A stretch of 20,000 nt of DNA from an uncultured virus (IMG/VR IMGVR_UViG_3300013108_000147). Its lineage: Duplodnaviria; Heunggongvirae; Uroviricota; Caudoviricetes; Crassvirales. Shown piece by piece: positions 1-16,293 of this stretch. The DNA lies in IMG/VR virus record IMGVR_UViG_3300013108_000147, one strand, 5' to 3'. The number at the start of each line of letters is the position of its first letter. Positions within the stretch are counted from its first letter, which is position 1. The translations under genes and the position numbers were made by a program. The notes under the pieces were generated by a model, which had not been told where the DNA came from, made no database searches, and saw only the letters and a list, made by a program, of their open reading frames with translations.

Positions 1-155
1 CTATGTCTAGTGTCGTACCACTCGTAGTATCCGTCTATGTGCTTAGAGATTCTGAAACCTCTGAAGAAAATTACATCTTCATAAGGGAACTCTCTAACAG
101 AGTGAGGCATCTCTTTTATAGCTACCTCATATATAAGTTGTGTTATATCTTTCAT
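1..155 (-). CDS. Hypothetical protein, 3'-truncated by window edge (MKDITQLIYEVAIKEMPHSVREFPYEDV...)
   Basis: Manually translated open frame from ATG at 155 running off the left edge; lies just downstream of the promoter at 173-204. Confidence 0.65.
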   Translation of the reverse strand, partial: MKDITQLIYEVAIKEMPHSVREFPYEDVIFFRGFRISKHIDGYYEWYDTRH

Positions 156-172
156 TACGTATTTTGTTTTAC

Positions 173-204
173 GCAATATACGAAAAATATATCGGAAAAC
201 CAAA
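173..204 (-). promoter_or_regulatory. Bacteroidota-type -33/-7 promoter variant TTTG-N20-TATATTGC
   Basis: Minus strand TTTG-GTTTTCCGATATATTTTTCG-TATATTGC; same geometry recurs at 16033, 18108 and 18861. Confidence 0.7.
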
Positions 205-205
205 T

Positions 206-568
206 CTATTTACCCTCTAGCCTCTTCGTAATCCTAGCTTGTAGTAAAATCCTATCGTAATTAGTAGGCTTGTAATCTTTGTACAACTCTTTAGGTAGTC
301 CGTCAAAAGACCTGCCGTAATACTCTACATTAAAACCTCTATCTTTACACTCTCTGTAAAGAGTTTCATACCTTCTCCTCAGGTACTTAAGTTTATCATA
401 AAAGAATTTAACGTGACCTGTACCTAGTTTAAACTCACTAGGTTGGTTGTCTAAGCTGTATCTGCCCTTCCTTATGCAGTTGGGTATACGCTTTATCTCT
501 CTGTGTTCGGCTATCAACATCTTGTTGTTTAATTCCGACGCTCTAATTCCTACGTTTATCCTAGTCAT
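206..568 (-). CDS. denV: Pyrimidine dimer DNA glycosylase / T4 endonuclease V
   Basis: N-terminal MTRIN (catalytic Thr2), AEHREIKR (catalytic Glu/Arg), FKLGTGHVKFFYDKL and ECKDRGF closely match T4 DenV. Confidence 0.95.
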   Translation of the reverse strand: MTRINVGIRASELNNKMLIAEHREIKRIPNCIRKGRYSLDNQPSEFKLGTGHVKFFYDKLKYLRRRYETLYRECKDRGFNVEYYGRSFDGLPKELYKDYKPTNYDRILLQARITKRLEGK

Positions 569-703
569 CTATATAGACCTAAATCTTCTGTTACTGTTCC
601 AGTCTTGCCTCTTAGCTTTGCCTAGAATAGCTTTTTTAGAAACACGCTTGTTAACGTCTTCTCTAGCCTCGTTCATCTGAGGGTTTCCGTTTTGGTTTTT
701 CAT
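569..703 (-). CDS. Small basic hypothetical protein (44 aa, MKNQNGNPQMNEARED...)
   Basis: Manually translated; exactly fills the gap between flanking co-oriented genes. Confidence 0.6.
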   Translation of the reverse strand: MKNQNGNPQMNEAREDVNKRVSKKAILGKAKRQDWNSNRRFRSI

Positions 704-705
704 GT

Positions 706-1083
706 TTAAAGTTTTTTAATAGTTGCGTTATTCCATTTACCTATTGGCATGTCTTCGTTTATTAAGATGTCTATTCTCTTACTAAACCTTTTGTTCATCT
801 TGTCCATGACAGTGTACACACCGTCATATTTAGTACCGCTAAGGTAAACCTTAGTCCCTTTAGGGTACTTCGCAAGTAAATCCCTTGACACGGCTATAAT
901 CTTGTGCTTGTAGGGATTGTTCAAGTCTAATTCAAACATGAAAGCTGTGTGCTTTGGGTCTGAGTTAGTCTGCTCTTCAACAGCGTTATACACTGTACAA
1001 ACTACCTGCTCTTGTGCTGATAGTGAAACAAATGTAGTAAATAAAAATAACACTACAAAATATTTTCTAAACTTTTTTTTCAT
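706..1083 (-). CDS. Secreted 3D-domain (RlpA-like double-psi barrel) peptidoglycan-active protein
   Basis: Signal peptide, then TVYN...IIAVSRDLL...GTKVY...YTVMD...RIDIL, the 3D/MltA-like Asp motifs. Confidence 0.8.
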   Translation of the reverse strand: MKKKFRKYFVVLFLFTTFVSLSAQEQVVCTVYNAVEEQTNSDPKHTAFMFELDLNNPYKHKIIAVSRDLLAKYPKGTKVYLSGTKYDGVYTVMDKMNKRFSKRIDILINEDMPIGKWNNATIKKL

Positions 1084-1093
1084 AATTTAAACT

Positions 1094-1342
1094 TTAATCT
1101 TCTATTCTAAATGTTATTAGTCCGTCTTTAGCAAAAGGGATTCCGTACACAGTGTAATTTGTCATAGCTTCAACTTCGTTTATTAAGTCTAGGAAATGGT
1201 AACCCGTATTTTTTGGTATAGGGTATTTAAACTTATCTATACCTGCTTTAGCTCTTTGTTCTGCTATCGTGATTATAGTATTTACATGTGTTTTATAATT
1301 TACAGCTCTTTTCGTTTTACTAACTTTTATTTCCATAATCAT
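1094..1342 (-). CDS. Hypothetical protein
   Basis: ORF track; tight packing in leftward operon (start may be ATG at 1336). Confidence 0.7.
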   Translation of the reverse strand: MIMEIKVSKTKRAVNYKTHVNTIITIAEQRAKAGIDKFKYPIPKNTGYHFLDLINEVEAMTNYTVYGIPFAKDGLITFRIED

Positions 1343-1498
1343 TTATCTAGATGTTAATGCCCATATAACAAGGTAAGGTATGAGTCCTACCACAAAGATA
1401 AATAATAGTCTCCAAAATATGGGGTCTATATTAGTGTAATCTCCTAATCCCTGGCATACGCCACCTACGTAGCCGTCTCTTCTTTTAAATTTTCTCAT
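1343..1498 (-). CDS. pspC: PspC (phage shock protein C) domain membrane protein, 51 aa
   Basis: Not in ORF track. Manual translation MRKFKRRDGYVGGVCQGLGDYTNIDPIFWRLLFIFVVGLIPYLVIWALTSR matches the PspC pattern GVC.Gl..Y..iDp...Rl.f....Y...W. Confidence 0.85.
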   Translation of the reverse strand: MRKFKRRDGYVGGVCQGLGDYTNIDPIFWRLLFIFVVGLIPYLVIWALTSR

Positions 1499-1500
1499 AA

Positions 1501-1830
1501 TTATCTATTTGTATAATAAAATTGATTTCCATCCTCATCTGTAAACATCTTAGATGGTAGTTTAAACTCGCAAGGAACATCTACTAACTCTTCTTCTGTT
1601 CTTACGCCATTGTTTGATAATGTTTCACAAGCACCGTCTACTGCATTTGGATTGTTGTTTAATACATTGATGTATGCGTTGTAATTACTATAGGTCTTTG
1701 TCTGACCATTTAAACATAAAGTCCAAGATTGATTTTTACCACCTACATAAACTTTTTTTGCCTCTTGTGTACATTCGTTCTCGCAATTAAACATTGCTAA
1801 TGTTACTAATAATACTAATACTTTTTTCAT
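1501..1830 (-). CDS. Putative lipoprotein
   Basis: From ATG at 1830: MKKVLVLLVTLAMFNC, a signal peptide II-like sequence ending in Cys. Confidence 0.65.
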   Translation of the reverse strand: MKKVLVLLVTLAMFNCENECTQEAKKVYVGGKNQSWTLCLNGQTKTYSNYNAYINVLNNNPNAVDGACETLSNNGVRTEEELVDVPCEFKLPSKMFTDEDGNQFYYTNR

Positions 1831-1832
1831 TT

Positions 1833-2039
1833 TTACTTGGTTTTTAAATTTATATACCAACCACTATTCATTTCTTCGTTTAATCTATCTTCGCCTTTCT
1901 TTGTAAAGAATTTTTTCTCAAAATCTCCAAAAGTGTGGTAGTCTTTTAACTTGTCAATACATTCTTTTACTGACTCTCCGCTTGTGTAAGTTTCACGATT
2001 TCCGCAGTCGCTTACAATTTTTAATTGATATTTTGCCAT
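1833..2039 (-). CDS. Hypothetical protein
   Basis: ORF track; AT-rich leader, operon packing. Confidence 0.7.
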   Translation of the reverse strand: MAKYQLKIVSDCGNRETYTSGESVKECIDKLKDYHTFGDFEKKFFTKKGEDRLNEEMNSGWYINLKTK

Positions 2040-2056
2040 TTCTATTGGTTTTTAAT

Positions 2057-2242
2057 TTAAAGTTTTACTAATTTTTCCATGACCTCCATTCTGTTGTCCC
2101 AATTGTAGAAACAGAACTTAATGAAGGAGTTTCTGTGTTGCATAGCGTCAGCTTTCTTGAGGAAGGCGTCTATATGCTTTTCATCAGGTGTATAGTTTAA
2201 CTTGTCACACTGATGTATAAAATCGTACATTAATCCTAACAT
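2057..2242 (-). CDS. Hypothetical protein
   Basis: ORF track; operon packing. Confidence 0.65.
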   Translation of the reverse strand: MLGLMYDFIHQCDKLNYTPDEKHIDAFLKKADAMQHRNSFIKFCFYNWDNRMEVMEKLVKL

Positions 2243-2249
2243 AAATTAT

Positions 2250-2405
2250 TTATTTTTCTTCAACATTCGTTAAGTGGTCATACAATAAGTTCATTTGATT
2301 TTTAAAAGATAGAGGTTTTTTTACACACTCGTATCTGCTATACTTGTTATAATAGTAATTTAAGTAGTCTTGAATTACTTTTTTTTCTTTTGGTGTGAGT
2401 TTCAT
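2250..2405 (-). CDS. Hypothetical protein (51 aa, MKLTPKEKKVIQDYLNYYY...)
   Basis: Manually translated; fills intergenic gap. Confidence 0.6.
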   Translation of the reverse strand: MKLTPKEKKVIQDYLNYYYNKYSRYECVKKPLSFKNQMNLLYDHLTNVEEK

Positions 2406-2426
2406 AATATTCACTTTTAAGATTAG

Positions 2427-2726
2427 TTAAAGCTCTCTAATGATTCTCATTTTCTGAGCTAGAACCCAAGTGCCTCCTTGAGACTCGGGTCTATTATAAA
2501 GTTCGTAGTCTTTTACCTCTACTTCAACCCATACTCTACCCTTCTCGGATAGGTGTGGTGCACTCTTCTCTAGGGTACAGTGCCAACCTTTTCTAGGTGC
2601 AAAACCCTTTTTAGGGTGAAACTCTGCATCTATCCAAACGTTTATCGGCACTCTACTTCTCTGATTTATGAACAACGGAGATAAGCTGCCGTCTTTCATC
2701 TTTCTAATTAGCTTGTATGCTTTCAT
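2427..2726 (-). CDS. Conserved-looking phage hypothetical protein
   Basis: ORF track; motif-rich (AYKL...LSPLFIN...KGFAPRKGWH...APHLS...SQGGTW). Confidence 0.75.
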   Translation of the reverse strand: MKAYKLIRKMKDGSLSPLFINQRSRVPINVWIDAEFHPKKGFAPRKGWHCTLEKSAPHLSEKGRVWVEVEVKDYELYNRPESQGGTWVLAQKMRIIREL

Positions 2727-2727
2727 T

Positions 2728-2913
2728 CTAATCTAATTGGTTTAATAATCCTCTTACAATATCTATCTGTTTTTTCAAGTAATCATCTGCGTCAGAAGGT
2801 TCTCTTTCTGATAATGATATTAATAGGTCTTTAAGAGCCCTCTTCCTATGTTCTAGGGACACCTTAACTATACTAGCTGATTCATCATTCAGCACTATGA
2901 TTTTCTGTGACAT
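2728..2913 (-). CDS. Hypothetical protein
   Basis: ORF track; abuts neighbours. Confidence 0.65.
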   Translation of the reverse strand: MSQKIIVLNDESASIVKVSLEHRKRALKDLLISLSEREPSDADDYLKKQIDIVRGLLNQLD

Positions 2914-2919
2914 GTCTGC

Positions 2920-3795
2920 TTAATTATATTTTTTGTTATACCAAGCTAACTTGTTTAAATCTAGCTTAGCGTTATTAGACTTCATGCTTCCTCCGTTTAT
3001 AAACAGTTTGATTGCTTTTTCTTTGTTTATAATGTTATTGGATTTGTTGTCTTCCTTAGGTGACCAACCTAGTCTAAGTATGTAGTTGAGTAGTGCGTCA
3101 TTACTGATGTTGCTTAAGTCTATCTCATCGGAATCTCTCTTAGACAACTTCTTTCCTGAACTGTGGCATACTAAACCTACGTGTGTAAATTTAGGTAAAT
3201 CTTTTTCAATTACAAAACTTTCGTTCAATAATTTCCAAATTAATGTTTGTTTATACGTATTAGATATGTGGTCTACTCCGCGAACTATCCACGTTACATC
3301 TTCATCGTAGTCGTCTACTGTAGATGCAAAGTTGTATGCCGGTGAGCCGTCAGACTTCATTATAACTTGTTCTGAGGCGTACCCTGCAATTTGGTCGTTA
3401 GCTTTCTTTAAACCTGTCAAAGTATCTGTCCAACTACAAGCGTCAACTTTAGTGGTTCCGTCGTAAAGTTCGTAACCTTTATTAAGTCTTATACATCCGT
3501 CATCTTCGATAGCCATACCTAATTCTACAAGTTGATTAGCTACTTCTCTATATCTGCCAAACCTCTCAGACTGCTTGAAAGTCTTGTCGTAGTCTAGACC
3601 AAGCCGTGATAGTGAATCAAATATGGGTTGTATAAGTTCCTCTCTACTACGTGTTAAGTCAGTGTCATCAACACGGACTATAAACTTAGAGTTTGTGTCT
3701 TGCTTAGATATAAGCCAATTGTGGTAAGCTGTTCTAAGTGTACCTATGTGTAACATACCAGTAGGTGATGGTGCTATTCTAACTATTTCTGCCAT
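2920..3795 (-). CDS. Glutamyl-tRNA synthetase catalytic-domain-only protein (GluRS/GluQ-RS-like, 291 aa)
   Basis: RIAPSPTGMLHIG (HIGH), RVDDTD, QSER, YNFASTVDD, IVRGVDH, KKLSKRD (KMSKS), NYILRLGWS, LDLNKLAWYN, then stop; the C-terminal anticodon-binding domains are absent. Confidence 0.92.
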   Translation of the reverse strand: MAEIVRIAPSPTGMLHIGTLRTAYHNWLISKQDTNSKFIVRVDDTDLTRSREELIQPIFDSLSRLGLDYDKTFKQSERFGRYREVANQLVELGMAIEDDGCIRLNKGYELYDGTTKVDACSWTDTLTGLKKANDQIAGYASEQVIMKSDGSPAYNFASTVDDYDEDVTWIVRGVDHISNTYKQTLIWKLLNESFVIEKDLPKFTHVGLVCHSSGKKLSKRDSDEIDLSNISNDALLNYILRLGWSPKEDNKSNNIINKEKAIKLFINGGSMKSNNAKLDLNKLAWYNKKYN

Positions 3796-3799
3796 TGTT

Positions 3800-4177
3800 T
3801 TAAAGTATTATTAATGTGTCGTATAAACTGTTTTGTTCTTCTTTTGATAGAGAGTTCATAAAGTATTTGATATCTGATATATCTTCTAGCGTCTCTATAG
3901 CGCTTCTGACGTGGTGATTCGGGTCGTACACCTCTTTGAATAAAGATATAGCTTTGTTAACACTCGTTATACCCTCATCTAATTTAAGATGTTTGCCTAT
4001 GCTTTTATTGTTCATAAGCATTTGGTCGTAATATAAATCCTCTACCCAAAGGTAGTTGTGGATTATCATAAGAAATCTTTGCGCCTTTTTCGCGTCTTTC
4101 ACGTGGCTTTTATAACCTAGAAGTCTTATGTATCTTCTAAGAGCCTTTTGTCTATTTCTAATATCTTCTCTTGTCAT
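3800..4177 (-). CDS. Hypothetical protein
   Basis: ORF track; operon packing. Confidence 0.7.
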   Translation of the reverse strand: MTREDIRNRQKALRRYIRLLGYKSHVKDAKKAQRFLMIIHNYLWVEDLYYDQMLMNNKSIGKHLKLDEGITSVNKAISLFKEVYDPNHHVRSAIETLEDISDIKYFMNSLSKEEQNSLYDTLIIL

Positions 4178-4262
4178 TATTTCTGTTTTATTTCTTCAAA
4201 ATGTATTTTATGGTAGCGACATTCGTGTCGTTAGCATCGGCTTCAATTTTTATACAGAGCCG

Positions 4263-4460
4263 TTACCACCCATAAGAGTTGTACATTTTTACTATATCCT
4301 CTCTTGTTATAGTTGTGTCTTCCATAAATTCACCATAACCAAACATTTTGTGTTCATAGTGAAATTTTTGTGACTTAGATAATTTATTCCACCACTTAAT
4401 AGCTTTATTACGTGTGGTAACACCACCTAAATTTAATTTATTCTCTTCGTTCATAAACAT
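4263..4460 (-). CDS. Cassette-associated hypothetical protein
   Basis: ORF track; starts inside attC-like element 4414-4482; its TAA stop lies in the GTTA core at 4262. Confidence 0.65.
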   Translation of the reverse strand: MFMNEENKLNLGGVTTRNKAIKWWNKLSKSQKFHYEHKMFGYGEFMEDTTITREDIVKMYNSYGW

Positions 4461-4486
4461 AATTTTAGCTTAACCGTTGTAAGTAA

Positions 4487-4780
4487 TTAAAGGTTCATTT
4501 CTTTTATTTTCATATAAACCATCATTAGTTCAAACAAACTATAACTTGTTTTCTTATAAAGGTATATATTTTCTCCTTGTACGCTTACATACTTTTCACA
4601 CCAATCATCAAAGGTCAGTTCCTTTTTGCTCTTTAACTCCGTACAACAATGTGTATAATTAATAGCTTCTATATCGTTCATTAAACAAGCTACTGTTTTA
4701 ATTGTTTTTTTGTCTGCATCAGCTTTTTCTATGTAAAAATCTATTACTCTTTGCAATATCTGTTTCTTATAATTATCCAT
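4487..4780 (-). CDS. Cassette-associated hypothetical protein
   Basis: ORF track; N-terminal half is encoded in the loop of attC-like element 4641-4835 and reads through the arm as INYTHCC. Confidence 0.65.
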   Translation of the reverse strand: MDNYKKQILQRVIDFYIEKADADKKTIKTVACLMNDIEAINYTHCCTELKSKKELTFDDWCEKYVSVQGENIYLYKKTSYSLFELMMVYMKIKEMNL

Positions 4781-4829
4781 TTTTATTATTTTTAGTTATT
4801 ATTCAAGCTACTAATCATACACTCGTCCG

Positions 4830-5018
4830 TTATGCACCATTACGCAAACTCTTACCTTGCTCTTTCGCCAAAGTTTTTAGTGTTTCCTTTTTTATTAAAA
4901 TACCCTTACAAGGCATTGTTCTGCAAATTGTTTCACAGCCTTCTCTTTCCAATAAATCTAAACCGCATTTAGTGCAAGGTATCCTACCAAGTTCATTGTA
5001 AGTATCTACTACATCCAT
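4830..5018 (-). CDS. Cassette-associated small Cys-rich protein (CxxC...CxxxC)
   Basis: ORF track; stop TAA in GTTA core at 4829. Confidence 0.6.
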   Translation of the reverse strand: MDVVDTYNELGRIPCTKCGLDLLEREGCETICRTMPCKGILIKKETLKTLAKEQGKSLRNGA

Positions 5019-5078
5019 TTTTTACAATTTAAAATTAACGGTGCATAACACCATATAAAATTCATTTCGTTCCTCCCG

Positions 5079-5288
5079 TTAGCCACAATTAACAGGTTGC
5101 TCTTTTGCCATTGTAGCGTTTTCTAAAATACTTATAGCTTGGTTTAGTTCTGAGATAGCATCTAAATCAGCATCAGTATCGGGGCAAGGTGCATCTATCT
5201 TACAGTTTCTTTTTATAAAACTATTTTCTATAAACGTATCCTTTGCTTTTTCTCGTTGTTCTTTTAGTTGTTGAATAATTCTTTCCAT
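5079..5288 (-). CDS. Cassette-associated hypothetical protein (MERIIQQLKEQ...)
   Basis: ORF track gives 5357 as the longest start; ATG at 5288 lies inside the cassette; stop in GTTA core at 5078. Confidence 0.6.
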   Translation of the reverse strand: MERIIQQLKEQREKAKDTFIENSFIKRNCKIDAPCPDTDADLDAISELNQAISILENATMAKEQPVNCG

Positions 5289-5399
5289 AATTAAATTAAC
5301 TGTGGCTAACACAAAAGATAGTGAATAGCCGATTAAACATTTGTTTTTCATAGCCAAGTTTAAGGTGTCGGCTACTCACCATATTCAAGCACGTTGTAG

Positions 5400-5612
5400 T
5401 TAATGTTTTTTACGAAACTTTCGCCATTTAATTTTAATCCATTCTACTAACACAATCACACCAAAGGCAAGTATTAATATCCCAAATATTGATAAACCTA
5501 TTACGTCTTTCCAATTCCAAAACATTGTTGTATCGTTACCGCAAGAGGTAAAAAACACTAACAACAACATTGTATATAGTGCATAGCTTGTTTTTGTTCT
5601 TAATCGTTTCAT
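5400..5612 (-). CDS. Cassette-associated membrane lipoprotein
   Basis: LLLVFFTSC lipobox plus a second TM helix and basic tail; starts inside attC-like element 5562-5692. Confidence 0.65.
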   Translation of the reverse strand: MKRLRTKTSYALYTMLLLVFFTSCGNDTTMFWNWKDVIGLSIFGILILAFGVIVLVEWIKIKWRKFRKKH

Positions 5613-5698
5613 TTTGCTTTTTATTTAAGTTATTTATAAATCATTATTTCGTGCTATAAGGTCGCTACGACACCATACACTAAGCGTTGTGTGTAATG

Positions 5699-6085
5699 CT
5701 ATACTTGCTTGTTAATTTCCTTAAAACACAATATACACTCAGGGTATTGTCTTCTACTATTAAAACTATAAAAACCGCCTTCCATATATTGTTTCCACAA
5801 TTCACTTTTTCTTTTAATTTCTAAAACATCTACCAATAAAAATTTATTAGGATTTAATTTTACAAAATCCCAAGATTTTTTATCTAAAAATCCTTTAAAA
5901 TCACCACTTTGTTTTAATGAGTTGTAATAATTACCTTCATTAATAGTGATAAAAGTTCCTCCGTATTCTCTTGTAAAAGTGTTAAGTTTTACTTTGTTTC
6001 CTTTTGATATTACAACTTGTTTTAAATCTTCTTTTGTCAGTTTTTCAGTATAAAATCTTTTTCTAAGTTTTGAAAGTTCACTCAT
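5699..6085 (-). CDS. Cassette-associated hypothetical protein
   Basis: ORF track; wholly contained in cassette 5686-6128. Confidence 0.7.
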   Translation of the reverse strand: MSELSKLRKRFYTEKLTKEDLKQVVISKGNKVKLNTFTREYGGTFITINEGNYYNSLKQSGDFKGFLDKKSWDFVKLNPNKFLLVDVLEIKRKSELWKQYMEGGFYSFNSRRQYPECILCFKEINKQV

Positions 6086-6177
6086 TATTTCTATATATCA
6101 TTAATTAATAATCCGCACTACACACAACAATATGTATAGTGCATTTTCGTGCCTCAAACGACACCATACACTCAAAG

Positions 6178-6450
6178 TTAGCCACAATTAAATGCCTTTA
6201 ACGTCTCTTCTATCATTGTTTGCCCTACGTAAGTATGTGTACTTTCATTAAATCTGTCTGCCAAATCATTTAACAGTTCACGTTGTTGGCTAACATCAGA
6301 TAAAACAAATTCTATGTCATTGTCATTTATCCGATGGTCTGACCAAGTAATCGCACTTTGAAACAAATCATTCCAATCTGTTGTGCTCTTGTCTATTGTT
6401 ACATCACTGCCTTCAATTTGTAGGTATATTTTTTTAGGTATATTTTTCAT
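6178..6450 (-). CDS. Cassette-associated hypothetical protein (MKNIPKKIYLQI...)
   Basis: Likely ATG at 6450 inside loop of attC-like 6288-6483; reads through the arm as FVLSDVSQQRELL; stop in GTTA core at 6177. Confidence 0.65.
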   Translation of the reverse strand: MKNIPKKIYLQIEGSDVTIDKSTTDWNDLFQSAITWSDHRINDNDIEFVLSDVSQQRELLNDLADRFNESTHTYVGQTMIEETLKAFNCG

Positions 6451-6488
6451 AATCAAACTTGTTTTATCTGTGATACGTTGTATCACAT

Positions 6489-6722
6489 TTATGGTTGTTT
6501 AAATACATTGTCTGCCCACTTAATATATTTCAAAGCATAATCAACACCTGTTAATATATAAGCTAAGTTTAGAGGTACTGCCAACACAATAAACACGATT
6601 GATAAGACAAGGTTTCCTACTGCATATCTTAAACGTGCTACAACACCGTATAAACTTAATTTAGGTTTCTTTTCTAATCCTAAACTTTTAATCATATATT
6701 CTGCGTCTATTTCTTTTTTCAT
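6489..6722 (-). CDS. Cassette-associated membrane protein
   Basis: ORF track; hydrophobic helix; crosses the half-site at 6635-6660 as LSLYGVVAR. Confidence 0.65.
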   Translation of the reverse strand: MKKEIDAEYMIKSLGLEKKPKLSLYGVVARLRYAVGNLVLSIVFIVLAVPLNLAYILTGVDYALKYIKWADNVFKQP

Positions 6723-6742
6723 AATTTCTGTTATTTAATTCA

Positions 6743-7156
6743 TTACACATCAATCAACTCGAATGATTTAGCATTTCTTGTTTTATCGTTCCAATATTTT
6801 TTGTTTAGTTCGTAAGCATCAGACATTCTCAAACCCATAGTTTCAGCAAGTATGTAGAATGGTTTAGTTAAGTAGTTAAATGCTAATGTCATTTCTGTTG
6901 CATCTCCTTCAAAAATTACTTCTTTTTTGTCGTTTAAAATTTGTTTCATATCACTTCGTTGGCTAACAATAGATACACTCAAATTTTTAACCTTAGCTTC
7001 GAGCCATTCTACGTATTCATCACAAAAACCATCTTCATAAGGTGTTTGTCCTGCGTAATCCTGTCTAACAGCCATCACACCATATCCGTTTTCTTTTTTA
7101 AACTTTTCTCTTAAATCCATATTTACTTCTTTTTTGTCGTTTAAAATTTGTTTCAT
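6743..7156 (-). CDS. Chimeric hypothetical protein with duplicated N-terminus MKQILNDKKEV
   Basis: ORF track; 34-bp perfect direct repeat in frame. Confidence 0.65.
   Translation of the reverse strand: MKQILNDKKEVNMDLREKFKKENGYGVMAVRQDYAGQTPYEDGFCDEYVEWLEAKVKNLSVSIVSQRSDMKQILNDKKEVIFEGDATEMTLAFNYLTKPFYILAETMGLRMSDAYELNKKYWNDKTRNAKSFELIDV
6916..7156. repeat. 34-bp perfect direct repeat (6916-6949 and 7123-7156)
   Basis: TTACTTCTTTTTTGTCGTTTAAAATTTGTTTCAT twice, 207 bp apart. Confidence 0.95.
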
Positions 7157-7323
7157 CGCTCAATGTGGTTAAAAATTAACTTCATCACCCAAGCATTTTC
7201 AAACTCATACATACCACAAACTAAACGCGCTTCTTCTGCTGTTTCGTAGTAGTTAATTTTTCCGTTTTCGTCTTTCATATAGTCCATATTTCTAAGGTCT
7301 ATAATTACATATTTGTTTTCCAT
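7153..7323 (-). CDS. Hypothetical protein (56 aa, MENKYVIIDLRNMDYMKDENG...)
   Basis: Manually translated; ATGA overlap with downstream ORF. Confidence 0.7.
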   Translation of the reverse strand: MENKYVIIDLRNMDYMKDENGKINYYETAEEARLVCGMYEFENAWVMKLIFNHIER

Positions 7324-7328
7324 TCCGT

Positions 7329-7529
7329 TCATCTTGTTAGTTTTGAGTTAACTACATCGATAATAACCCAATCGTGAGCACCCTCTTTTTTAAATTCTTC
7401 TAACTCTCTTTCAGAGTCTAAGTAAAAGAAAATGTCATCGTCATCTTCTTCTATGTCTCCGATTTTTAGAACCATATCGTCTTGTATGTTTCCGTCATCT
7501 AACCATTTTATCGTTGCTATAAATCTCAT
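7329..7529 (-). CDS. Acidic hypothetical protein
   Basis: ORF track; probable ATG at 7529 (MRFIATIKW). Confidence 0.7.
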   Translation of the reverse strand: MRFIATIKWLDDGNIQDDMVLKIGDIEEDDDDIFFYLDSERELEEFKKEGAHDWVIIDVVNSKLTR

Positions 7530-7607: not shown

Positions 7608-7958
7608 TTAAACATTAAAACGATTATATTCTTGAATAAATTCTACTACTGCCTTATATGTATCTTCTATAGTCCATATGTTTTCGTACCCCTCTGTAAG
7701 TTTTGAGAATGTTTCATCAAATGGTGTGTTATAGTAATCATCCCCTATCTTTTGGACTACTGGCATCAGCCAATCCCAAGAGGTGTGGTATTTTAAATCA
7801 CTAATTCTTTTAACGGCATAAGTACCACTTGGCAAACCCTCACTTCCTTTTACGCAAAGGATTCTTGATTCTCCTATTGTTTGTGGCAGGTTAATTAAAT
7901 TTGGTACACTTGATGGTATACCACTCATAAATTCTGCAATAAGTTTATTGTATTCCAT
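7608..7958 (-). CDS. Phage hypothetical protein (NKLIAEFM...YHTSWDWLMPVV motif; possibly ABA-sandwich-like)
   Basis: ORF track; motif recalled from Bacteroidota phage proteins, family assignment tentative. Confidence 0.7.
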   Translation of the reverse strand: MEYNKLIAEFMSGIPSSVPNLINLPQTIGESRILCVKGSEGLPSGTYAVKRISDLKYHTSWDWLMPVVQKIGDDYYNTPFDETFSKLTEGYENIWTIEDTYKAVVEFIQEYNRFNV

Positions 7959-9160: not shown

Positions 9161-11764
9161 TTATTCTGATTCTTTCATCTCCTCTAAGTACTCTTCATAG
9201 TACTCAACTAACACGTACTCATCGGCATCGGTAACATGATAATCAGAGTGCTCTAAGCTAAACTCTGTACCCGACTGAGCGCATGTTCCCATATCGTCAC
9301 AATCCCTAACATAACCGCCGTTATAATCTACGTAAATAGCGTGAGATTCGTGTATGTACTCTCCGTCAAGCAACTCTACTGCGTCATCGTTCAATATATA
9401 CTCACCTGAATATTCGCAGTAAGTAGCGTTATCTATGTGTGTATTTATTCCTCTACTATCTATGTAAACAGCGTCTCCGCTATATATGTATCTATGATCC
9501 CAATCGTCGTACTCTCTTTCTTCCAAGTTACTGTGCTCACCTTCAGTAGACCTAAGCTCTGTTACCTCGTCACGGCTACTCAAGTACCCCGACAATTCTC
9601 CCGAATCTATATTAAGGTAGTAGAATGTGTCTAAGTAAGGGAATCCATCGTCATCACTTGGTATATGGTCAAGCATAATACTTATGTCTTCAGAGCTCTC
9701 TGTTTCATTTCCGTCAGGAGACACAAAGTTACACGTTGAAGAGTCTTGATGTTCTTTACACCAAAAACCTTTGTCTCTTGCAAAACTCTTGAAAGCGCTG
9801 ATAGTGGCATCAGTACCATATATTCTGTCTAGCCACTTATTATCCCAAAGAAGTGCCCTACCTTTAAGTAGGTCATCCTTAGTTAGAATAACCAATTTAA
9901 CTTGGTTAGGGTTCTCTGTGTATATATCTAACCAAGGTAAACATTGTTCGTGTCTCATGCATGACGAGCCTAGTGTACCTACGTTTTCATTGTGGTGATT
10001 AGAGCCGTCATACCAATGTCTTATATCCTCTCCTGTAACTATACTGAAATTTCCTACGCTATACTCGCCTTTGATAGAGTTAACTAACTTCTCAATCTCG
10101 TGGTCAGTAAACTTCTTTCTAGGTACTTGCTCGCTAAGTACTTTCCTAATCAACTTGCCGTACTTTGACGATTGTCTGCCTTTAGAGCTCCATTTGTAAC
10201 CGTCTGTTATCACAGTCTCCTTGCCTGCAGGCGTGTAAGTCATAGATTGGTCTGCTTTAATCGTGATGTTTCTAGTACTGTCTTTGTAGTAGCCTAAAGA
10301 ACTAATCTTAGTAAGAGTTTTAGCTACAGAGTTTTTATCTGCAAACTTCATTAGAACATTAAATAAACTTTCAGAAAACAATTGTGTCTCTAAGTCAGAG
10401 TTATATCTTGGCGTCATGCTATACAACTTATGTCTTTTACGGAATATTAGTCTTTGACTCCAATTAGATTCTCTAATATTCCTTTCAAAATTAGCTATGT
10501 ATCTCAACGTATCGTTATACTTAGCCGCGTCTTCAGAGTTAGCTCTCCTTATAACTATTTCAGTGTTATCAACCGTAAACGTGTTTCCAAAGTTCGTGCC
10601 GGAGTACCTTATATATTCGCCCGATTGTTTATCAACTACTACTAACTTTCTTGTTTTCCAATACTTAACTAAGCGTTCTTTCCCGTATTTTACTACGTAG
10701 AGTTCTCCCGACCTAAGACTTGTGACTGATAGTGAATCTTCTTTTGTATTACCATTAAGTAAAGCGTAATTAAATGCTCCCGTATCCGCAATGGTAGTTA
10801 TTTCGTAAAGTGCGTGCCCTTTGTAATTAACGAGTAAGTCTAGCACAGTGTTGTAATAACCAACAACGTATTCACCCTCAGACGCAACATAGCCTTCGTA
10901 TACTCTGATTACGGTTATTCCCCCTCCATTCCCAAAACTGTTCTTAATATATAGGGTTGACTTACCTTCTTCAAACAAATCTCTGCTGATAGCTGAGATT
11001 GATTCCTCGCTAAGCTCTACGGGTACGAAACTATCTTCTGTAAATGTTTCGCCTTTATCATGCATTGCAACCCCAGTTGCTTGTCGAAGCGCTTCGTTTA
11101 AATTGAACATTACTGCCTCTACCTCGTACATGTTTCTAACTTTAACAGTGGCTATATTAGGTGCAAAGTGACTATGCTTCTTTTCAATCACTAAAGAGTT
11201 ACCTAACATAAGCCTGCTATTAATCATGTACTTAAAATTTGGTAAAATGTATTGTAGAGTCTCTAAGCTACCGTAGAGTCTTCTTGAGTCTTCTACCATT
11301 ACACCTAGCACACCTTCGCCGTCTATAAGTAGTGTAAGAGACTCATACCCATATTCGTTGTCAGTCATACTACGTATAGCGTCAAGAAGATAAGGTATGT
11401 GTTCACCTAAAGAGTAGTGCAGTGAGGTAAACGCTGTTACAAACTTACTCAAGTCTCTATCTTTTGTACTACTAAAACTTGACGTTGGTGAGCCTTCATA
11501 ATAGCTGAATTCATGTTTTAGAGCCGATTGTAAAAGCTGCTTAGGTATTTCGTCTGACAAACGCAATAGTGGTATATACCCCACATTTAAACAACGCTTA
11601 ACAGATGATACGTTTAAACTATGTATCACAGTATCCGAATGCCTTGCTGTTCTAAACTCTTGCAAGTTAGAGTTGGAGTCTGTTAAAAAGGGTACTGTTA
11701 GTTCCTCGTGGCTTTTGTTCTTGTCTGAATCCGTCAGTAATTCTTCGTGAAAAAGTCTCTTCAT
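9161..11764 (-). CDS. Large phage protein of unknown function (867 aa)
   Basis: Long ORF; C-terminal half has SCMR...GRALLW...WLDRIY...FPYLDTF motifs and acidic Tyr/Cys repeats. Confidence 0.85.
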   Translation of the reverse strand: MKRLFHEELLTDSDKNKSHEELTVPFLTDSNSNLQEFRTARHSDTVIHSLNVSSVKRCLNVGYIPLLRLSDEIPKQLLQSALKHEFSYYEGSPTSSFSSTKDRDLSKFVTAFTSLHYSLGEHIPYLLDAIRSMTDNEYGYESLTLLIDGEGVLGVMVEDSRRLYGSLETLQYILPNFKYMINSRLMLGNSLVIEKKHSHFAPNIATVKVRNMYEVEAVMFNLNEALRQATGVAMHDKGETFTEDSFVPVELSEESISAISRDLFEEGKSTLYIKNSFGNGGGITVIRVYEGYVASEGEYVVGYYNTVLDLLVNYKGHALYEITTIADTGAFNYALLNGNTKEDSLSVTSLRSGELYVVKYGKERLVKYWKTRKLVVVDKQSGEYIRYSGTNFGNTFTVDNTEIVIRRANSEDAAKYNDTLRYIANFERNIRESNWSQRLIFRKRHKLYSMTPRYNSDLETQLFSESLFNVLMKFADKNSVAKTLTKISSLGYYKDSTRNITIKADQSMTYTPAGKETVITDGYKWSSKGRQSSKYGKLIRKVLSEQVPRKKFTDHEIEKLVNSIKGEYSVGNFSIVTGEDIRHWYDGSNHHNENVGTLGSSCMRHEQCLPWLDIYTENPNQVKLVILTKDDLLKGRALLWDNKWLDRIYGTDATISAFKSFARDKGFWCKEHQDSSTCNFVSPDGNETESSEDISIMLDHIPSDDDGFPYLDTFYYLNIDSGELSGYLSSRDEVTELRSTEGEHSNLEEREYDDWDHRYIYSGDAVYIDSRGINTHIDNATYCEYSGEYILNDDAVELLDGEYIHESHAIYVDYNGGYVRDCDDMGTCAQSGTEFSLEHSDYHVTDADEYVLVEYYEEYLEEMKESE

Positions 11765-12089: not shown

Positions 12090-12329
12090 TCATACTTTTG
12101 GTACGTATTGAGTTATATTTCTATCGTCTACATAAATGTCTAGTGGCACATGCCCTGTAACTTCAACCATAACGATTTCTACTGCGTCGCTAGGTATGTC
12201 TACAACTGTTTCAAATTCTGCAGTTGCAAGGTCGTTTGCGCAAACATTGTTAATAAAATGATTTCCACCGTGGTCTACTCGGTTCTTGTTTCCGTTTGCG
12301 TCTGTCCAAACTTGATTAAAATATCCCAT
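12090..12329 (-). CDS. Hypothetical protein
   Basis: ORF track; AT-rich leader. Confidence 0.7.
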   Translation of the reverse strand: MGYFNQVWTDANGNKNRVDHGGNHFINNVCANDLATAEFETVVDIPSDAVEIVMVEVTGHVPLDIYVDDRNITQYVPKV

Positions 12330-12358
12330 TTTCTATTTGATTTTAAGGGTTAAACTTG

Positions 12359-12438
12359 TACCCGCAGTGTGATTCGAACACACGTCTAAACATCTGTGTA
12401 TCATAGATGAATTGTCCTAACCTCTAGACGATGCGGGC
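12359..12438 (-). tRNA. tRNA-Glu-scaffold tRNA-like RNA with aberrant 25-nt anticodon arm (copy 1)
   Basis: GCCCGCA/TGCGGGT acceptor stem, TC-GTCTAGAGGTTAGGAC-A D arm, AGAC variable loop, GTGTG-TTCGAAT-CACAC T arm; no canonical anticodon loop, no encoded CCA. Confidence 0.8.
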
Positions 12439-12451
12439 GCACTTTAATTAT

Positions 12452-12883
12452 TTATATTAAGCTATTACGTAGCTTATCTATAAACGATTCAACCTCATTG
12501 GATTGTTTTTCTATTTCGTCACTCCATACCTTTGCTAGATGAATAGAAAGGATTTGATTTTCTTTTAAAACACGTTCTTTTGTCCAAATATTTTCAGTAC
12601 CAAACCAAACAGTGTCCCATCCTACTACCCACATGTCCTCCATGTCTGCAACCTCTTCCCATCCTATAATATCGTCTGAGTTTTTAGAGAATGTAAGATT
12701 AACATGAGCATGGTGTTCTAACTTCTTATTTATCTCACCATATCCTAAACCGAAGTACGGATGTCTTCTTGGTAGTGCAACATATCCGTTTCCCCAACCT
12801 CCTAACCCTTGTGGAGTCCAAGTGTTTTCTTTTAAAAATGCTTTCATGATATTTATATTAAATTTGTTTATTATCTCAGCCAT
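12452..12883 (-). CDS. Conserved phage hypothetical protein (NGYVALP..HP...LTF...WVVGWD family)
   Basis: ORF track; motif pattern recalled from phage proteins. Confidence 0.75.
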   Translation of the reverse strand: MAEIINKFNINIMKAFLKENTWTPQGLGGWGNGYVALPRRHPYFGLGYGEINKKLEHHAHVNLTFSKNSDDIIGWEEVADMEDMWVVGWDTVWFGTENIWTKERVLKENQILSIHLAKVWSDEIEKQSNEVESFIDKLRNSLI

Positions 12884-13113
12884 CTGTTCAATTTTAAAGC
12901 TATTTTATATCTTAAAGTATTGCCGTGTTTTGCACGATTGATAGTGAACGCTATCTTATAGATTTGATAACCCACGACCATAGCAGTTAAGCCTACAGTT
13001 TTAACTACTACAAATGTTTGTAGGTTAAAGCCATTAGTTTGTTCTGCTAACACTAAGCATAGCCCTGCCATTATAAGCAAAGCTGATATGCTAAAAGTTA
13101 ATATGTGTCTCAT
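12871..13113 (-). CDS. Two-TM membrane protein
   Basis: ORF track; two hydrophobic helices, basic C-terminus. Confidence 0.7.
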   Translation of the reverse strand: MRHILTFSISALLIMAGLCLVLAEQTNGFNLQTFVVVKTVGLTAMVVGYQIYKIAFTINRAKHGNTLRYKIALKLNRWLR

Positions 13114-13115
13114 GA

Positions 13116-13268
13116 TTATATTAGTTTTAATTGCCTTTGCATTTCTTTATAGCGCATAATATCCCACGCTTTTTTATAGCCTATGTTATGTAATTGCATT
13201 AATTTATGCACCATTTTTTCTTCGATAGACTGCACTCGCATACGTCTACGTTTTGGTTTATTTGCCAT
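13116..13268 (-). CDS. Small basic protein (50 aa, MANKPKRRRMRVQSIEEK...)
   Basis: Manually translated; AT-rich leader, abuts next gene. Confidence 0.6.
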   Translation of the reverse strand: MANKPKRRRMRVQSIEEKMVHKLMQLHNIGYKKAWDIMRYKEMQRQLKLI

Positions 13269-13291
13269 TTTTATTTAATTTAATTGATTTG

Positions 13292-13371
13292 CACCCATAG
13301 ACAGATTCGAACTGCCGTCTATACACCGCGACGATTTTAGTGTATTGTCCTAGCCACTAGACGATATGGGC
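13292..13371 (-). tRNA. tRNA-Glu-scaffold tRNA-like RNA with aberrant 25-nt anticodon arm (copy 2)
   Basis: GCCCATA/TATGGGT acceptor stem, TC-GTCTAGTGGCTAGGAC-A D arm, ATACAC-13nt-GTGTAT arm, AGAC, GGCAG-TTCGAAT-CTGTC T arm. Confidence 0.8.
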
Positions 13372-13375
13372 ATGA

Positions 13376-13408
13376 TATAAAAAGCCCTACACTTTTACAT
13401 GTAGGGCT
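13376..13408 (-). terminator. Terminator-like hairpin between Rho-N gene and tRNA-like copy 2
   Basis: AGCCCTACA-8nt-TGTAGGGCT (13383-13408) running into a T-run on minus strand. Confidence 0.6.
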
Positions 13409-13438
13409 GTGAGGGATATGGATTGAGGCAAAAAAGGT

Positions 13439-13861
13439 TTATGCCGTTACTAAAGCTATTAATTCAGCTTTTTTCATCTTTGAAAATTTGGTTTTACCTT
13501 GTTTTTTAGCTACCTCTTTAAGCTGCGCTACGTTCATCTTCTCAATTGGAGTTAATGTAGGTGCAGTATCAGATAAATTCGCAGCGCTTTTAATAGCCTT
13601 GTGTATTGCTTGTAACACAAAGAATGGGCTGTAATTTCCTGCCTTTGAAACTCGCACGTTCTCCTTGAATGTAGCGTAAACATCGTTGTTTTCTCTAATC
13701 TCACTCAATATTTGAATGTATTGCGTGCTAAGCTCTATTTCATCTCTAAAAAGCCACAGTATTTTTACTGCACCTCCTAATGATTTGCACTCTCGTTTTA
13801 ACGCCTTGTTAGTGTTTAAAACGTTCATTTTGTAAGCTGAAATTTTGTTTGATTTTGCCAT
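13439..13861 (-). CDS. Protein with C-terminal Rho termination factor N-terminal (HeH-like) nucleic-acid-binding domain
   Basis: IEKMNVAQLKEVAKKQGKTKFSKMKKAELIALV matches the Rho_N consensus. Confidence 0.8.
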   Translation of the reverse strand: MAKSNKISAYKMNVLNTNKALKRECKSLGGAVKILWLFRDEIELSTQYIQILSEIRENNDVYATFKENVRVSKAGNYSPFFVLQAIHKAIKSAANLSDTAPTLTPIEKMNVAQLKEVAKKQGKTKFSKMKKAELIALVTA

Positions 13862-13903
13862 AATTTAAAAATTTAATTATTGTTTATTGATTTTAATTAA
13901 TAG

Positions 13904-14604
13904 ATGCCCATGACAATATGCACTACGTGTCATGGGCTATTGATATGTACCACTTTTGTGGATTTCACGCACTGGTTTACTGCGCTTATGTAAATATATG
14001 TATACGGATTTATTCCGTTGGTGTAACTTAATAAAATGTTGGGTTTTTTTGAGCCTTGAAATATACACGTTAGTACCACAGCTATTTTATTGTACTTTTG
14101 ATAACTCATTACCTAGAGATAAAACCCGTCTGAAAAATGTTGGCGTATCGCTGACTAATGTATATGCAGGTTAGTTTCATACCTTTCCTGCCAACCACTC
14201 GAATAATCACGCTAGGGTATTTTACTCCCATTGTCACGCAGTGGCAACCTTTTTACACCTTTACGGTGCCCTATATGCGTTCACGCTTCTCACGCCCAAC
14301 TGATAGGTTTTAATTCGTTTCAGTAAGGATTCTACTCACTTTGCGCTATAATAGTAGTTTAACGTGACTAAACTCGCCATACGATTCACCCAATGCGCTG
14401 CACTCCTAATGCTTGACCATACCTGTGCTTACAGGGCATTTCACCCTTATTATATGCTTACACCTTTGTGCTTAGCATACCTGCTGAATTGCAGTACACG
14501 TGTAGAATTGCCATTCTACCATGGCGCCATTGTGGCTCCAAAACTACTTCGCTACCTAGTAACAAAGTTTTAAAATCATGTTGAAATCGTTATTTCGTTT
14601 CAAC
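13904..14604 (-). ncRNA. Candidate large structured non-coding RNA / leader (~700 nt)
   Basis: No minus-strand ORF of 60 aa or more; many hairpins; promoter directly upstream; closing 10-bp hairpin at 13906-13937. Confidence 0.5.
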
Positions 14605-14608
14605 AGTA

Positions 14609-14616
14609 CAAACATA
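14609..14616 (-). promoter_or_regulatory. Bacteroidota -7 promoter element (TAnnTTTG) driving leftward transcription
   Basis: Minus strand TATGTTTGTACTGTTG; near-identical TATATTTGTACTGTTG at 16911 on plus strand. Confidence 0.65.
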
Positions 14617-14635
14617 CGTGGCATTTTTGACATAG

Positions 14636-15939
14636 TAAAATCCTGATAATCAAGCAGTTAGAAATTAAAGTGTTGATAATCAGACAGTTAGCTAAGTAGC
14701 TGAGTATCAAGGACTTAAGCAAAATGCCTTCTCGGTTAAAGCGCTGAGTATCAGGTAGTTAGCTTGTTTGTAATCGCCGTTTTTCCCAAACTGAAAACCT
14801 AGAGTAAAAAAAATTCAAAAAAAATTAAAAAGGGCTTATAAGTAACTGATATTCAAGTAGTTACAAGCAAAAAAAATTTTAAAATTAGCTTTAAAGTTAA
14901 AAGGTTGATAATCAAGCAGTTATAAAATCGAGTTTGTAAGTAGCTGAGTATCAATAAGTTATAAATTTAAAAAATTACGTTTGTAAGTATCTGAGAATCA
15001 AGTAGTTAGAGTAAGTAGTTGATAATGAGGCAGTTACGTTAAAGTGTTGATACTCAAGTAGTTAGATTAAAACGTAGTTAAAAGTTAAAGCGCTGAAAAT
15101 CAGGTAGTTAAGTTTTGGCTAGGTAGCAGTTAAACTAAAGTACTGATACTCAAGGGTTTAGGTACAAAGAGTGTTTGTAAGTAGCTGAGGTTCAGGCAGT
15201 TACGATTCTGGCTCATAAGGTAGATTAAAGGTAAAACGTTGATAATGAGGCAGTTACGGCTAAGTAGCTGAGTATCAGGCGCTTACACCGGCACCGAGAA
15301 TTAAATAGTCGTAACTATCTGAAAGTCAGGCAATTAGGCGTAACTATCTGAGAATCAGGCGCTTACACTGGCACCGAGACTTAAATAGGCGTAACTATCT
15401 GAGTATCAGGCGCTTACACCGGCAAGCATATTTAAGTAGTTGTAACTATCTGAGAATCAGGTAATTAGACGTAACTAATTGATAATGAGGCAGTTAGATT
15501 AACTCTTAAAGTATATGGAATTCGCGCGCGCGTAAAGAGCGTAACTATCTGAGAATGAAGCAGTTAGACGTAACTAATTGATAATGAGGCAGTTACGGTA
15601 GAGTGGGTGAATTGAGTGGGTAAATAATTGATAATGAGGCAGTTACGGGTAAGTGTTTGATAGTCAAATGATTAGAGTATAAGTAGTTAATAGTAATATA
15701 TAAGCCTGAGTATCAAGCAGTTAGAATAAAAAACCTACAATACATAACTGTTAAGCGCCTGATTGTCAAGGTGTTAAGTTTGTTAAGCTAGTGTTTAACA
15801 GATTTTACAGATACATTAGACAAAAGATGTAACTATCTGAGTATCAGCGATTTAGACTAGTGTTTTAGGGCATTTCAATAAATAAGTTATTAAAAAAGTC
15901 AAAAAATTTGCTCGTAAAAGCCTGAAAATCAAGCCCGTA
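14636..15939. repeat. Array of ~28 quasi-palindromic 25-bp repeats TAA-N5-TGA-N3-T(C/G)A-N5-TTA (IHF-consensus-like)
   Basis: Copies counted by eye from 14636 to 15915; right half fits WATCARNNNNTTR in most copies. Confidence 0.9.
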
Positions 15940-16032
15940 CGCCTAAAAAAATCGGTTTTCCTTTTCAAAAAATTCCCGTTCCATTTATGTAATACCTTTG
16001 TACCTAGTCCGTCCTCAATAATTTCAAATTGG

Positions 16033-16064
16033 CTTGCATATGTGGAAAATATTTCGTATATTGC
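16033..16064 (+). promoter_or_regulatory. Rightward promoter CTTG-N20-TATATTGC
   Basis: Same geometry as 173-204 and 18108-18139; additional TACCTTTG -7 box at 15993-16000. Confidence 0.65.
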
Positions 16065-16103
16065 AAAGACAGGAAAGTTACAACTAATTAAAATTACCGT
16101 AAA

Positions 16104-16265: not shown

Positions 16266-16293
16266 GTTTCAAATAATTTAAAGCCAAATAAGG

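Follow-up and report, generated by a model that had tools for sequence, protein, structure and literature searches.

A 20,000-nucleotide (nt) stretch of an uncultured Crassvirales virus genome (IMG/VR record IMGVR_UViG_3300013108_000147; hereafter the window) carries, at positions 4262 to 6729 on the minus strand, an array of eight gene cassettes in tandem, none with a promoter of its own, together with one decayed cassette. We interpret this array as part of a phage-borne integron-like system, to which we assign a probability of roughly 0.68: in relatives, such arrays end at the gene for a compact tyrosine recombinase of the Xer/IntI clade, whereas the phage considered here carries its cassettes without the enzyme. 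Integrons are the textbook bacterial device for stockpiling and swapping single genes, and are defined by one integrase family. A preliminary description of the same DNA, made from its letters, had proposed an integron-like array served by an integron-type recombinase. Much of that proposal stands, in that the units are cassettes with borders at the core triplets and are tied to a recombinase of the Xer/IntI clade, but the enzyme is not IntI and the sites are unlike attC. Here we describe the anatomy of the array, the asymmetry of its two strands, the borders of its cassettes and the association of such cassettes with the recombinase.

The preliminary description listed eight units, each enclosed by its own inverted repeat that starts with GTT and ends with AAC, and all eight are present at the coordinates listed, several with longer repeats than had been written. 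Paired positions number 8 of 8 for the repeat 4262/4421, 14 of 17 for 4476/4647, 13 of 14 for 4829/5049, 14 of 15 for 5078/5310, 19 of 21 for 5393/5568, 13 of 14 for 5686/6128, 8 of 8 for 6177/6294 and 13 of 15 for 6477/6644. Between 4238 and 6975, 13 pairs bounded by GTT and AAC score at least 8, where 200 dinucleotide shuffles yield 1.83 on average (at most 6), and 5 score at least 11, where the shuffles yield 0.07 (at most 2). The rest of the 20-kb window holds just three pairs scoring at least 9, namely two chance-level 9-base pair (bp) pairs and the pair 15253–15475, which is long because it is part of another repeat field (14600–15900, described below). The two hairpins quoted earlier between units also exist, the first with arms at 4651–4668 and 4805–4822 forming an 18-bp stem, and the second with 15-nt arms at 6297–6311 and 6456–6470 that are 93% complementary. 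The spacing then given, AAC-(2–3 nt)-arm-loop-arm-(5–6 nt)-GTT, is correct on the plus strand; on the coding strand it reads AAC, 5 or 6 nt, stem to stem, 1 to 4 nt, GTT. An Rfam search over 4000–7400 (E ≤ 1) returned no match in the array, the two tRNA-like matches of the window lying elsewhere.

On the coding strand, the preceding AAC is followed by some 5 nt of linker and by the leader stem (LS) of the cassette, and a second, unequal linker of 1–4 nt leads to the unit stem (US). This grammar is present in all eight window cassettes and in arrays of eight other sources. The LS comprises 10–21 bp and closes a loop of 7 to about 150 nt, which can contain the start codon and first codons; some leader stems have a one-base bulge at no fixed position, and fixed G.T pairs are found instead. 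The US starts with GTTR, ends with YAAC, is 14 bp long and closes around the remaining open reading frame (ORF). Its positions 1–3 are fixed, positions 4–10 are freely variable yet paired, position 12 is mostly T-A and position 11 is a G.T mispair in 24 of 28 units. When whole modules were folded with RNAfold, the US emerged as the closing helix in 6/8 and the LS was recovered in 5/8. We defined a strict US model as GTTR/YAAC ends, at least 12 of 13 Watson–Crick pairs and G.T at position 11. Six of the eight window units pass it, the weaker ones being those of cassettes B (4476–4647) and G (6177–6294), and it finds five units in Polaribacter phage P12002L, four and two in Cellulophaga phages phi46:3 and phi18:3, two in the record G006 and none in G001, the record nearest to the window phage, compared with 0–0.4 in shuffles. 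Unrelated viral loci totalling 661 kb contain no unit that fits the model, and 735 kb of sequence contain four, each of them on the gene strand. Two unit stems of phi46:3 (locus L050, 2935–2994 and 3677–3739 in coding orientation; 60 and 63 nt) are empty, with no ORF in the loop.

The mismatches in these stems are strongly asymmetric. With strand-symmetric scoring of distinct arm pairs or stems, the US mismatches (39 distinct arm pairs) comprise 26 G.T, 2 T.G, 1 A.C and 3 C.A, with 23 of the G.T at position 11, and the LS mismatches (26 distinct stems) comprise 29 G.T, 1 T.G, 3 C.A and 0 A.C. Pooled, 58 are G.T or T.G and 7 are A.C or C.A. Because the former far outnumber the latter, it is one strand that folds, namely the one that carries the sense sequence of the cassette genes. 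The coding strand folds better than its antisense in 8/8 modules.

Copies elsewhere show that phages of marine Flavobacteriia exchange whole cassettes horizontally, with borders just after AAC. Cassette E (5393–5685) is present in ten metagenome contigs, and its seven complete copies (the window and six contigs) are 92–100% identical to the window copy, with a pairwise mean of 95%. The likeness begins past the AAC of the previous unit and ends at the cassette's own AAC, whereas the flanks average about 57%, which is background; one pair has a common left flank, and all right flanks are at most 62% alike. The segment 5393–5681 also occurs in a sequencing run from another study. An orthologue of protein E with 48% amino acid identity is enclosed by quite different arms, which still pair and keep G.T at position 11. 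In addition, a joint from 4473 to 4827, which skips 353 nt with 5 nt of ambiguity, removes cassette B from border to border. This absence is a minority path in two runs of the source study (X3 and X4), at a depth of 2.1–2.6 as against 5–10; the sides of such contig joints are short (25 nt), as set by unitig construction. The copies of cassette E and the deletion of cassette B thus bear out the claim that the units are discrete cassettes bordered at the GTT/AAC core.

The arms themselves travel with different genes. Ten cassettes from nine sources share the arm type of cassette F, yet their ten ORFs, of 57–238 amino acids (aa), are mutually unrelated (best blastp E value 0.78). This arm type is accompanied by three kinds of leader; at two more loci an F-type 5′ arm has no 3′ arm within 900 nt. 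Joints from 5701 to 6105 likewise replace the cassette F ORF in other contigs. A 14-mer scan of viral contigs returned mostly chance matches, with true relatives at 4, perhaps 5, of 80 loci. The 238-aa ORF lies in the F-arm cassette of locus L156 (oriented, 4004–4774) and starts like a DNA methyltransferase, with a DPPYG motif recognized by eye.

Gene shuffling of this kind is familiar from T4-type phages, in which orphan ORFs (ORFans) in variable regions are flanked by repeated regulatory motifs, a promoter plus a stem-loop (PeSL). According to Arbiol et al. (2010; PMC2839356), PeSL cassettes consist of a sigma-70-type promoter and a terminator and recombine by homology at varying points, whole ORFs are inserted, deleted or replaced between related phages, mini-circles form without a dedicated recombinase, and the authors themselves compare these cassettes with integrons. 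PMC2839356 was also the nearest result of a full-text literature search, which returned no account of the present system. PeSL-type or moron-type shuffling by homology would account for ORFan cassettes whose flanking hairpin elements are common to unrelated phages at 82–96% identity, and for the repeat-like peaks of read depth over leaders, such as that over 5026–5139 (cassettes C and D) in 4/4 runs examined. We nevertheless regard it as improbable, as there is no promoter for each cassette, the leaders of neighbouring cassettes are mostly dissimilar, the borders are fixed at AAC and not spread over a motif, with cassette E flanks at background, and the long-range 14-bp stem enclosing each gene has no PeSL counterpart. 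A further difference from PeSL cassettes is the link to a tyrosine recombinase in relatives.

The inverted repeats with conserved ends, one to every unit, would also suit invertible segments or small transposons with terminal inverted repeats. Such an origin is very improbable: 8/8 joints in the reads are skips with no change of strand, inversion would break the ORFs, no target duplications were seen by eye at the flanks, and the position-11 mismatch is strand-specific, which recognition of double-stranded ends would not predict.

The cassettes of relatives lie beside a recombinase gene. In the jumbo phage G002, which also has an F-arm cassette, the gene for a 268-aa tyrosine recombinase starts 37 nt past the AAC of the last cassette. 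Homologues with 52–100% identity occur in 80 viral loci, and the strict model finds 281 unit stems upstream of them on the same strand (239 distinct sequences with 159 distinct 5′ arms, in 319 kb), compared with 0 in 422 kb downstream on that strand; the opposite strand has 0 and 2, and shuffles have 1. Unit stems were found upstream in 55 of the 56 loci that have at least 1,500 nt of upstream sequence, and in 45/66 loci the last AAC is 37–83 nt from the start of the recombinase gene. A conserved terminal site, TATWWTATATA..GTAA, directly follows the last AAC (AAC|TATWWTATATA) in these arrays. Junction elements of the window match five recombinase-linked arrays at 83–96%.

The best models for the compact recombinase are archaeal XerA (176.9 bits; cut-off 220) and the integron integrase TIGR02249 (151.8 bits; cut-off 265). 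Among proteins of known structure, a XerA-like one aligns with it over the whole length, the nearest Protein Data Bank (PDB) entries being 4a8e and the IntI4 structure 2a3v. The alignment to IntI4 falls into two pieces, with recombinase residues 181–210 (30 residues) opposite IntI4 residues 182–259, leaving about 48 residues of IntI4 without a counterpart. Because its score is below the integron-integrase cut-off and the IntI-specific stretch is missing, we place the enzyme in the Xer/IntI clade but not among the IntI proteins. Two other enzymes are unrelated to it by BLASTP and were therefore not counted as support: a 428-aa enzyme of phi18:3 and phi46:3 with a weak likeness to XerD, and a 189-aa tyrosine recombinase catalytic half in G313.

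Several observations weigh against a recombinase-served system. The link between recombinase and arrays is one of position only, and the 80 loci include near-duplicates, as the 239 distinct sequences among 281 units indicate. Exchange has also occurred elsewhere than at AAC: cassette H and its P12002L counterpart are joined at GTT, and one ORF family sits in the US of L159 and in the LS of L163, which have only the inner 7 bp in common, so that this exchange lies inside the stem. Linker length ranges between 3 and 8 nt, a wider latitude than strict site-specific joining would show. The enzyme, moreover, is missing from the phage itself. As the preliminary description had stated, the window holds no integrase (0 PF00589 matches among 31 ORFs); the 54.4-kb record G001 likewise has no PF00589 match and no tyrosine recombinase, and the terminal site is absent from the window. 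Cassettes also persist without an enzyme in the complete phage P12002L, which has five units and no PF00589 match.

The hairpins, in addition, suit a role in RNA equally well, since the stems are on the mRNA strand, the reading frames end near AAC and the advantage of the sense strand is large for RNA (−147.9 versus −107.4 for the antisense) and small for DNA (−73.0 versus −65.1). The start codons lie in loops, and for 33 of the 37 units that measure 120 nt or more a same-strand open frame ends within 25 nt of AAC, often with the TAA of TAAC or with a stop codon bordering the arm on its inner side. The hairpins might then act in RNA alone, standing between the cistrons of a long polycistronic message to insulate or stabilise them or to mark them for processing, while cassettes moved by ordinary or illegitimate recombination at the conserved feet of the hairpins, with no dedicated enzyme. 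The sigma-A −7 box TAnnTTTG (a consensus taken from PMC9723704) occurs once on the coding strand inside the array (35 times in the whole window, with 27.9 expected). This single occurrence rules out a promoter in each leader, implies that the cassettes are co-transcribed and is what an RNA role would lead one to expect. We nonetheless judge RNA function alone to be unlikely. The flanks of cassette E share nothing past YAAC and so offer no homology for ordinary recombination, the neighbouring small genes on the same strand (window 1–4200) do without such stems, and in one P12002L cassette (L275, 14622–15197) the hairpin grammar is intact on the plus strand but the annotated ORF (gene 0024) is on the minus strand. 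Furthermore, an RNA role by itself leaves both the 281-to-0 stacking of units at the recombinase and the fixed borders unexplained. Alongside recombination, the hairpins may plausibly also insulate or stabilise the individual cistrons, because the stems are part of the message, the sense RNA hairpins are far more stable and the cassettes have no −7 box of their own.

The missing enzyme was sought more widely. A homologue of the compact recombinase (tblastn, E ≤ 1) was found in none of the window, G001, P12002L, phi18:3, phi46:3 and G006. The window and G001 together leave about 5 kb of the phage outside, as estimated from the size of relatives. As the window and a further 54 kb of the phage lack the compact recombinase, we describe the window array as integrase-less. 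An 867-aa ORF (9161–11764, minus strand) was considered as a candidate enzyme and rejected, having no Pfam, NCBIfam, PHROG, PDB or Atlas relative; its product has an acidic, Cys/His-rich tail, and its only homologue was found in the jumbo phage G002 (32% identity over 300 residues). A search for an integron integrase that the host might supply found none: 0 of the 301 genomes searched in its family, that of a Flavobacteriaceae metagenome-assembled genome (MAG), reach the cut-off. Thus, of the integron-type recombinase proposed for phage or host, the association stands, with 281 units upstream and 0 downstream of the recombinase in the 80 loci, but no integron integrase was found in the window, in G001 or in the 301 host-family genomes searched. 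The same search found a true integron integrase in another Bacteroidota MAG, G011 (415.9 bits, over the cut-off). It is encoded on contig 42 (L274; 10 kb) with one attC-like hairpin beside it, and the MAG also includes a contig with an F-type arm.

These results bear on whether the window holds a classical integron array served by a phage or host IntI. The AAC/GTT cores, the border at AAC, the complementarity of each cassette's ends to each other, the strand-skewed hairpins and the existence of integron integrases in metagenomic Bacteroidota (G011) would all fit. Yet this is hardly credible: neither the window nor G001 has an integron integrase, none of the 301 host-family genomes searched reaches the cut-off, the array-linked enzyme is below it and is missing the stretch specific to IntI, no array of the window's grammar is seen on the contig that encodes the true integron integrase, and the site design is unlike attC.

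The likeness to integrons is nevertheless extensive. In integrons, as set out by Nivina et al. (2016; PMC5027507), AAC alone is conserved, the cut falls in the AAC of the folded bottom strand, and attC bottom strands have more G:T mispairs (1.24 versus 0.39). The window cassettes mirror these traits in the conservation of AAC, the border at AAC and the excess of G:T. Like integrons and clusters of attC sites lacking integrases (CALINs), they form arrays in which the cassettes lack promoters and mostly hold one gene each; conservation is limited to the AAC/GTT triplets, the border (in the cassette E copies and the cassette B deletion) falls at AAC on the G.T-rich strand, and the site is an imperfect one-strand hairpin with excess G:T. 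The first bases of a cassette pair with its own last bases, as 13.1 of 14 positions pair around one unit and 9.1 of 14 at one junction; the complementarity between R″ and R′ noted in the preliminary description therefore holds for a unit's own ends, but there is no 7-bp R box. In relatives, a tyrosine recombinase gene stands at the array end next to a distinct terminal site, again as in integrons. The geometry suggests that the recombinase sense strand in relatives is the folding ('bottom') strand, as for intI; with the plus strand of the window as 'top', the cassettes read unit and then hairpin, as had been proposed.

The differences from integrons are equally clear. The recombinase is compact, Xer-like in layout and below the integron-integrase cut-off, without some 48 residues of IntI4 182–259. 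The paired ends span 14 bp with a fixed G.T at position 11, unlike the 7-bp R box of attC; the cores are 28–182 nt apart, whereas integron sites measure 57–141 nt; and no consistent extrahelical bases were seen. Genes lie on the folding strand, run towards the recombinase in relatives and often start inside a hairpin loop, and cassettes are also scattered singly in phage genomes. The window itself lacks the recombinase and the terminal site, and the analogous layout is that of the relatives. Two other systems share parts of this design. In CTX-type phages, a Xer-family tyrosine recombinase acts on a one-strand hairpin and the host may supply the enzyme, but the whole phage is integrated at a chromosome dimer-resolution site and cassettes are not moved within the phage genome. 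REP/REPIN elements with RAYT, and IS200/IS605 elements, have strand-specific imperfect hairpins with short conserved feet and are mobilised as single-stranded DNA, but by HUH enzymes and with no cargo ORF inside the hairpin.

Taken as a phage-borne integron-like system, the array would work as follows. The compact recombinase would act on a folded single DNA strand and cut at AAC, cassettes being severed and rejoined immediately past AAC, at the base of the fold. Arrays in many relatives end through AAC|TATWWTATATA at the start of the 268-aa recombinase gene, whereas the window phage holds cassettes without the enzyme, like an attC cluster without an integrase. Its array would therefore depend on an enzyme supplied in trans, from a co-infecting phage or, as a Xer-type enzyme, from the host, and may still be active, or else it may now be passive. 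A broader proposal seems to us somewhat better than an even bet, namely that Bacteroidota phages run their own gene-capture system, parallel to integrons but distinct from them, with a compact Xer-like recombinase, a terminal site, a community-wide pool of hairpin-caged cassettes and trans service during co-infection. In such a system, genes or gene halves would be carried inside the loops of the recombination hairpins, and new proteins would therefore arise from a leader and a body joined at the GTT (valine) codon. Here, integron logic appears in a phage setting: the recombinase is smaller and of another kind, and the sites follow a design of their own, with the gene enclosed in the folded site. 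Should the link to the enzyme prove right, it would account for the single-gene precision with which ORFan, methyltransferase and membrane-protein genes are traded among marine phages. Mobile accessory genes in viromes could then be sought by a signature made up of AAC, a linker and a hairpin, followed by GTTR and a 14-bp stem with G.T at position 11, and the compact recombinase, with its structure-defined sites, might serve as a tool.

All ORFs of the array region are on the minus strand, and the eight small cassette proteins have no Pfam match, with PHROGs touched by only two of them, weakly or partially. Cassette H (6477–6729) has a strict US with arms ending at 6477 and 6644 and a leader at 6645–6729; its ORF (6489–6722; 77 aa, with a membrane helix) starts within the leader. 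The leader and first 26 codons are about 90% identical to P12002L gene 0042, common and in frame up to GTT, where the likeness ends and the bodies differ, and the PHROG 30810 match of protein H is limited to residues 1–27. Cassette G (6177–6476) has a weak US of 8 bp (6177–6294) and the LS whose 6297–6311 and 6456–6470 arms are given above; its ORF (6178–6450) starts with ATG and lies partly in the LS loop, and its 5′ arm region matches the recombinase-linked arrays L312 and L353 at 85–96%. Cassette F (5686–6176) consists of a linker (6172–6176), an LS (6132–6171) and a US with arms ending at 5686 and 6128, and encodes a 128-aa protein (5699–6085) whose TAG stop abuts the 3′ arm; a homologue search with this protein gave two 19-residue matches only. 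Cassette E combines an LS with arms at 5572–5587 and 5664–5680 and a 21-bp US (5393–5568), and its ORF (5400–5612; 70 aa) starts at an ATG (5612) in the LS loop and encodes a lipoprotein-type signal peptide.

Cassette D (5078–5392) has LS arms at 5314–5332 and 5368–5386 and a US at 5078–5310. Its ORF (5079–5288) starts with ATG and ends as NCG-TAA-C inside the 3′ arm, and the leader and 5′ arm are 82% identical to an intergenic stretch of phi18:3. Cassette C (4829–5077) has a 28-nt leader with no predicted LS, a US at 4829–5049 and a 62-aa ORF (4830–5018). In cassette B (4476–4828), the LS (arms 4651–4668 and 4805–4822) closes a 136-nt loop containing the ATG (4780) of a 97-aa ORF (4487–4780), and the US occupies 4476–4647. 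Cassette A (4262–4475) has a weak leader hairpin (4422–4475) that includes the ATG (4460), a US at 4262–4421 and a 65-aa ORF (4263–4460) whose TAA stop is within the terminal TAAC. After this last cassette, and before ORF 3800–4177, a leader-type hairpin without a unit stem (4200–4261, minus strand) marks the array end; between genes of the phi46:3 cassette array there is a stretch that matches its 4208–4255 segment at 92% identity. On the other side of the array, a decayed cassette junction (6966–6991, minus strand), with an LS remnant and a GTTAGCCAAC arm, lies inside ORF 6743–7156 and weakly matches L094. The first 41 nt of this ORF are repeated in its middle after the decayed junction (6909–6949 versus 7116–7156, 93%), and the ORF looks like two cassettes fused in one reading frame.

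The window derives from a marine metagenome and is phage DNA; its genes include one for endonuclease V, one matching a peptidase PHROG and one that is GluRS-like. G001 is 98% identical to it over 12269–20000 and has about ten structural genes in common with phi18:3 and phi46:3. The product of the GluRS-like gene (2920–3795, minus strand) is 291 aa long, about half the usual length, and contains the class I Glu/Gln tRNA synthetase catalytic domain (PF00749, 170 bits); it may be a GluQ-type enzyme in a phage. Searches for relatives of the window through this ORF and through a 125-aa ORF gave none, and those through a 358-aa ORF gave 47 distant loci, none with an array feature. Through a 116-aa ORF we obtained 79 loci with only that gene in common, two of which have units. 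This gene (7608–7958, minus strand) has relatives encoded in 146 stretches, with at most 69% protein identity, tblastx segments of up to about 90% and no synteny; it is another single-gene mobile unit, one without hairpins. The two Rfam tRNA matches are on the minus strand, 80 nt each, at 12359–12438 (41.3 bits) and 13292–13371 (50.7 bits), and were not called by ARAGORN. The ORF-free region 14600–15900 contains about 25 copies, in both orientations, of a roughly 28-nt GTAAnTAnnTGAnAATCAnGCAGTTA-like motif; this iteron-like field may be a replication origin or another protein-binding field.

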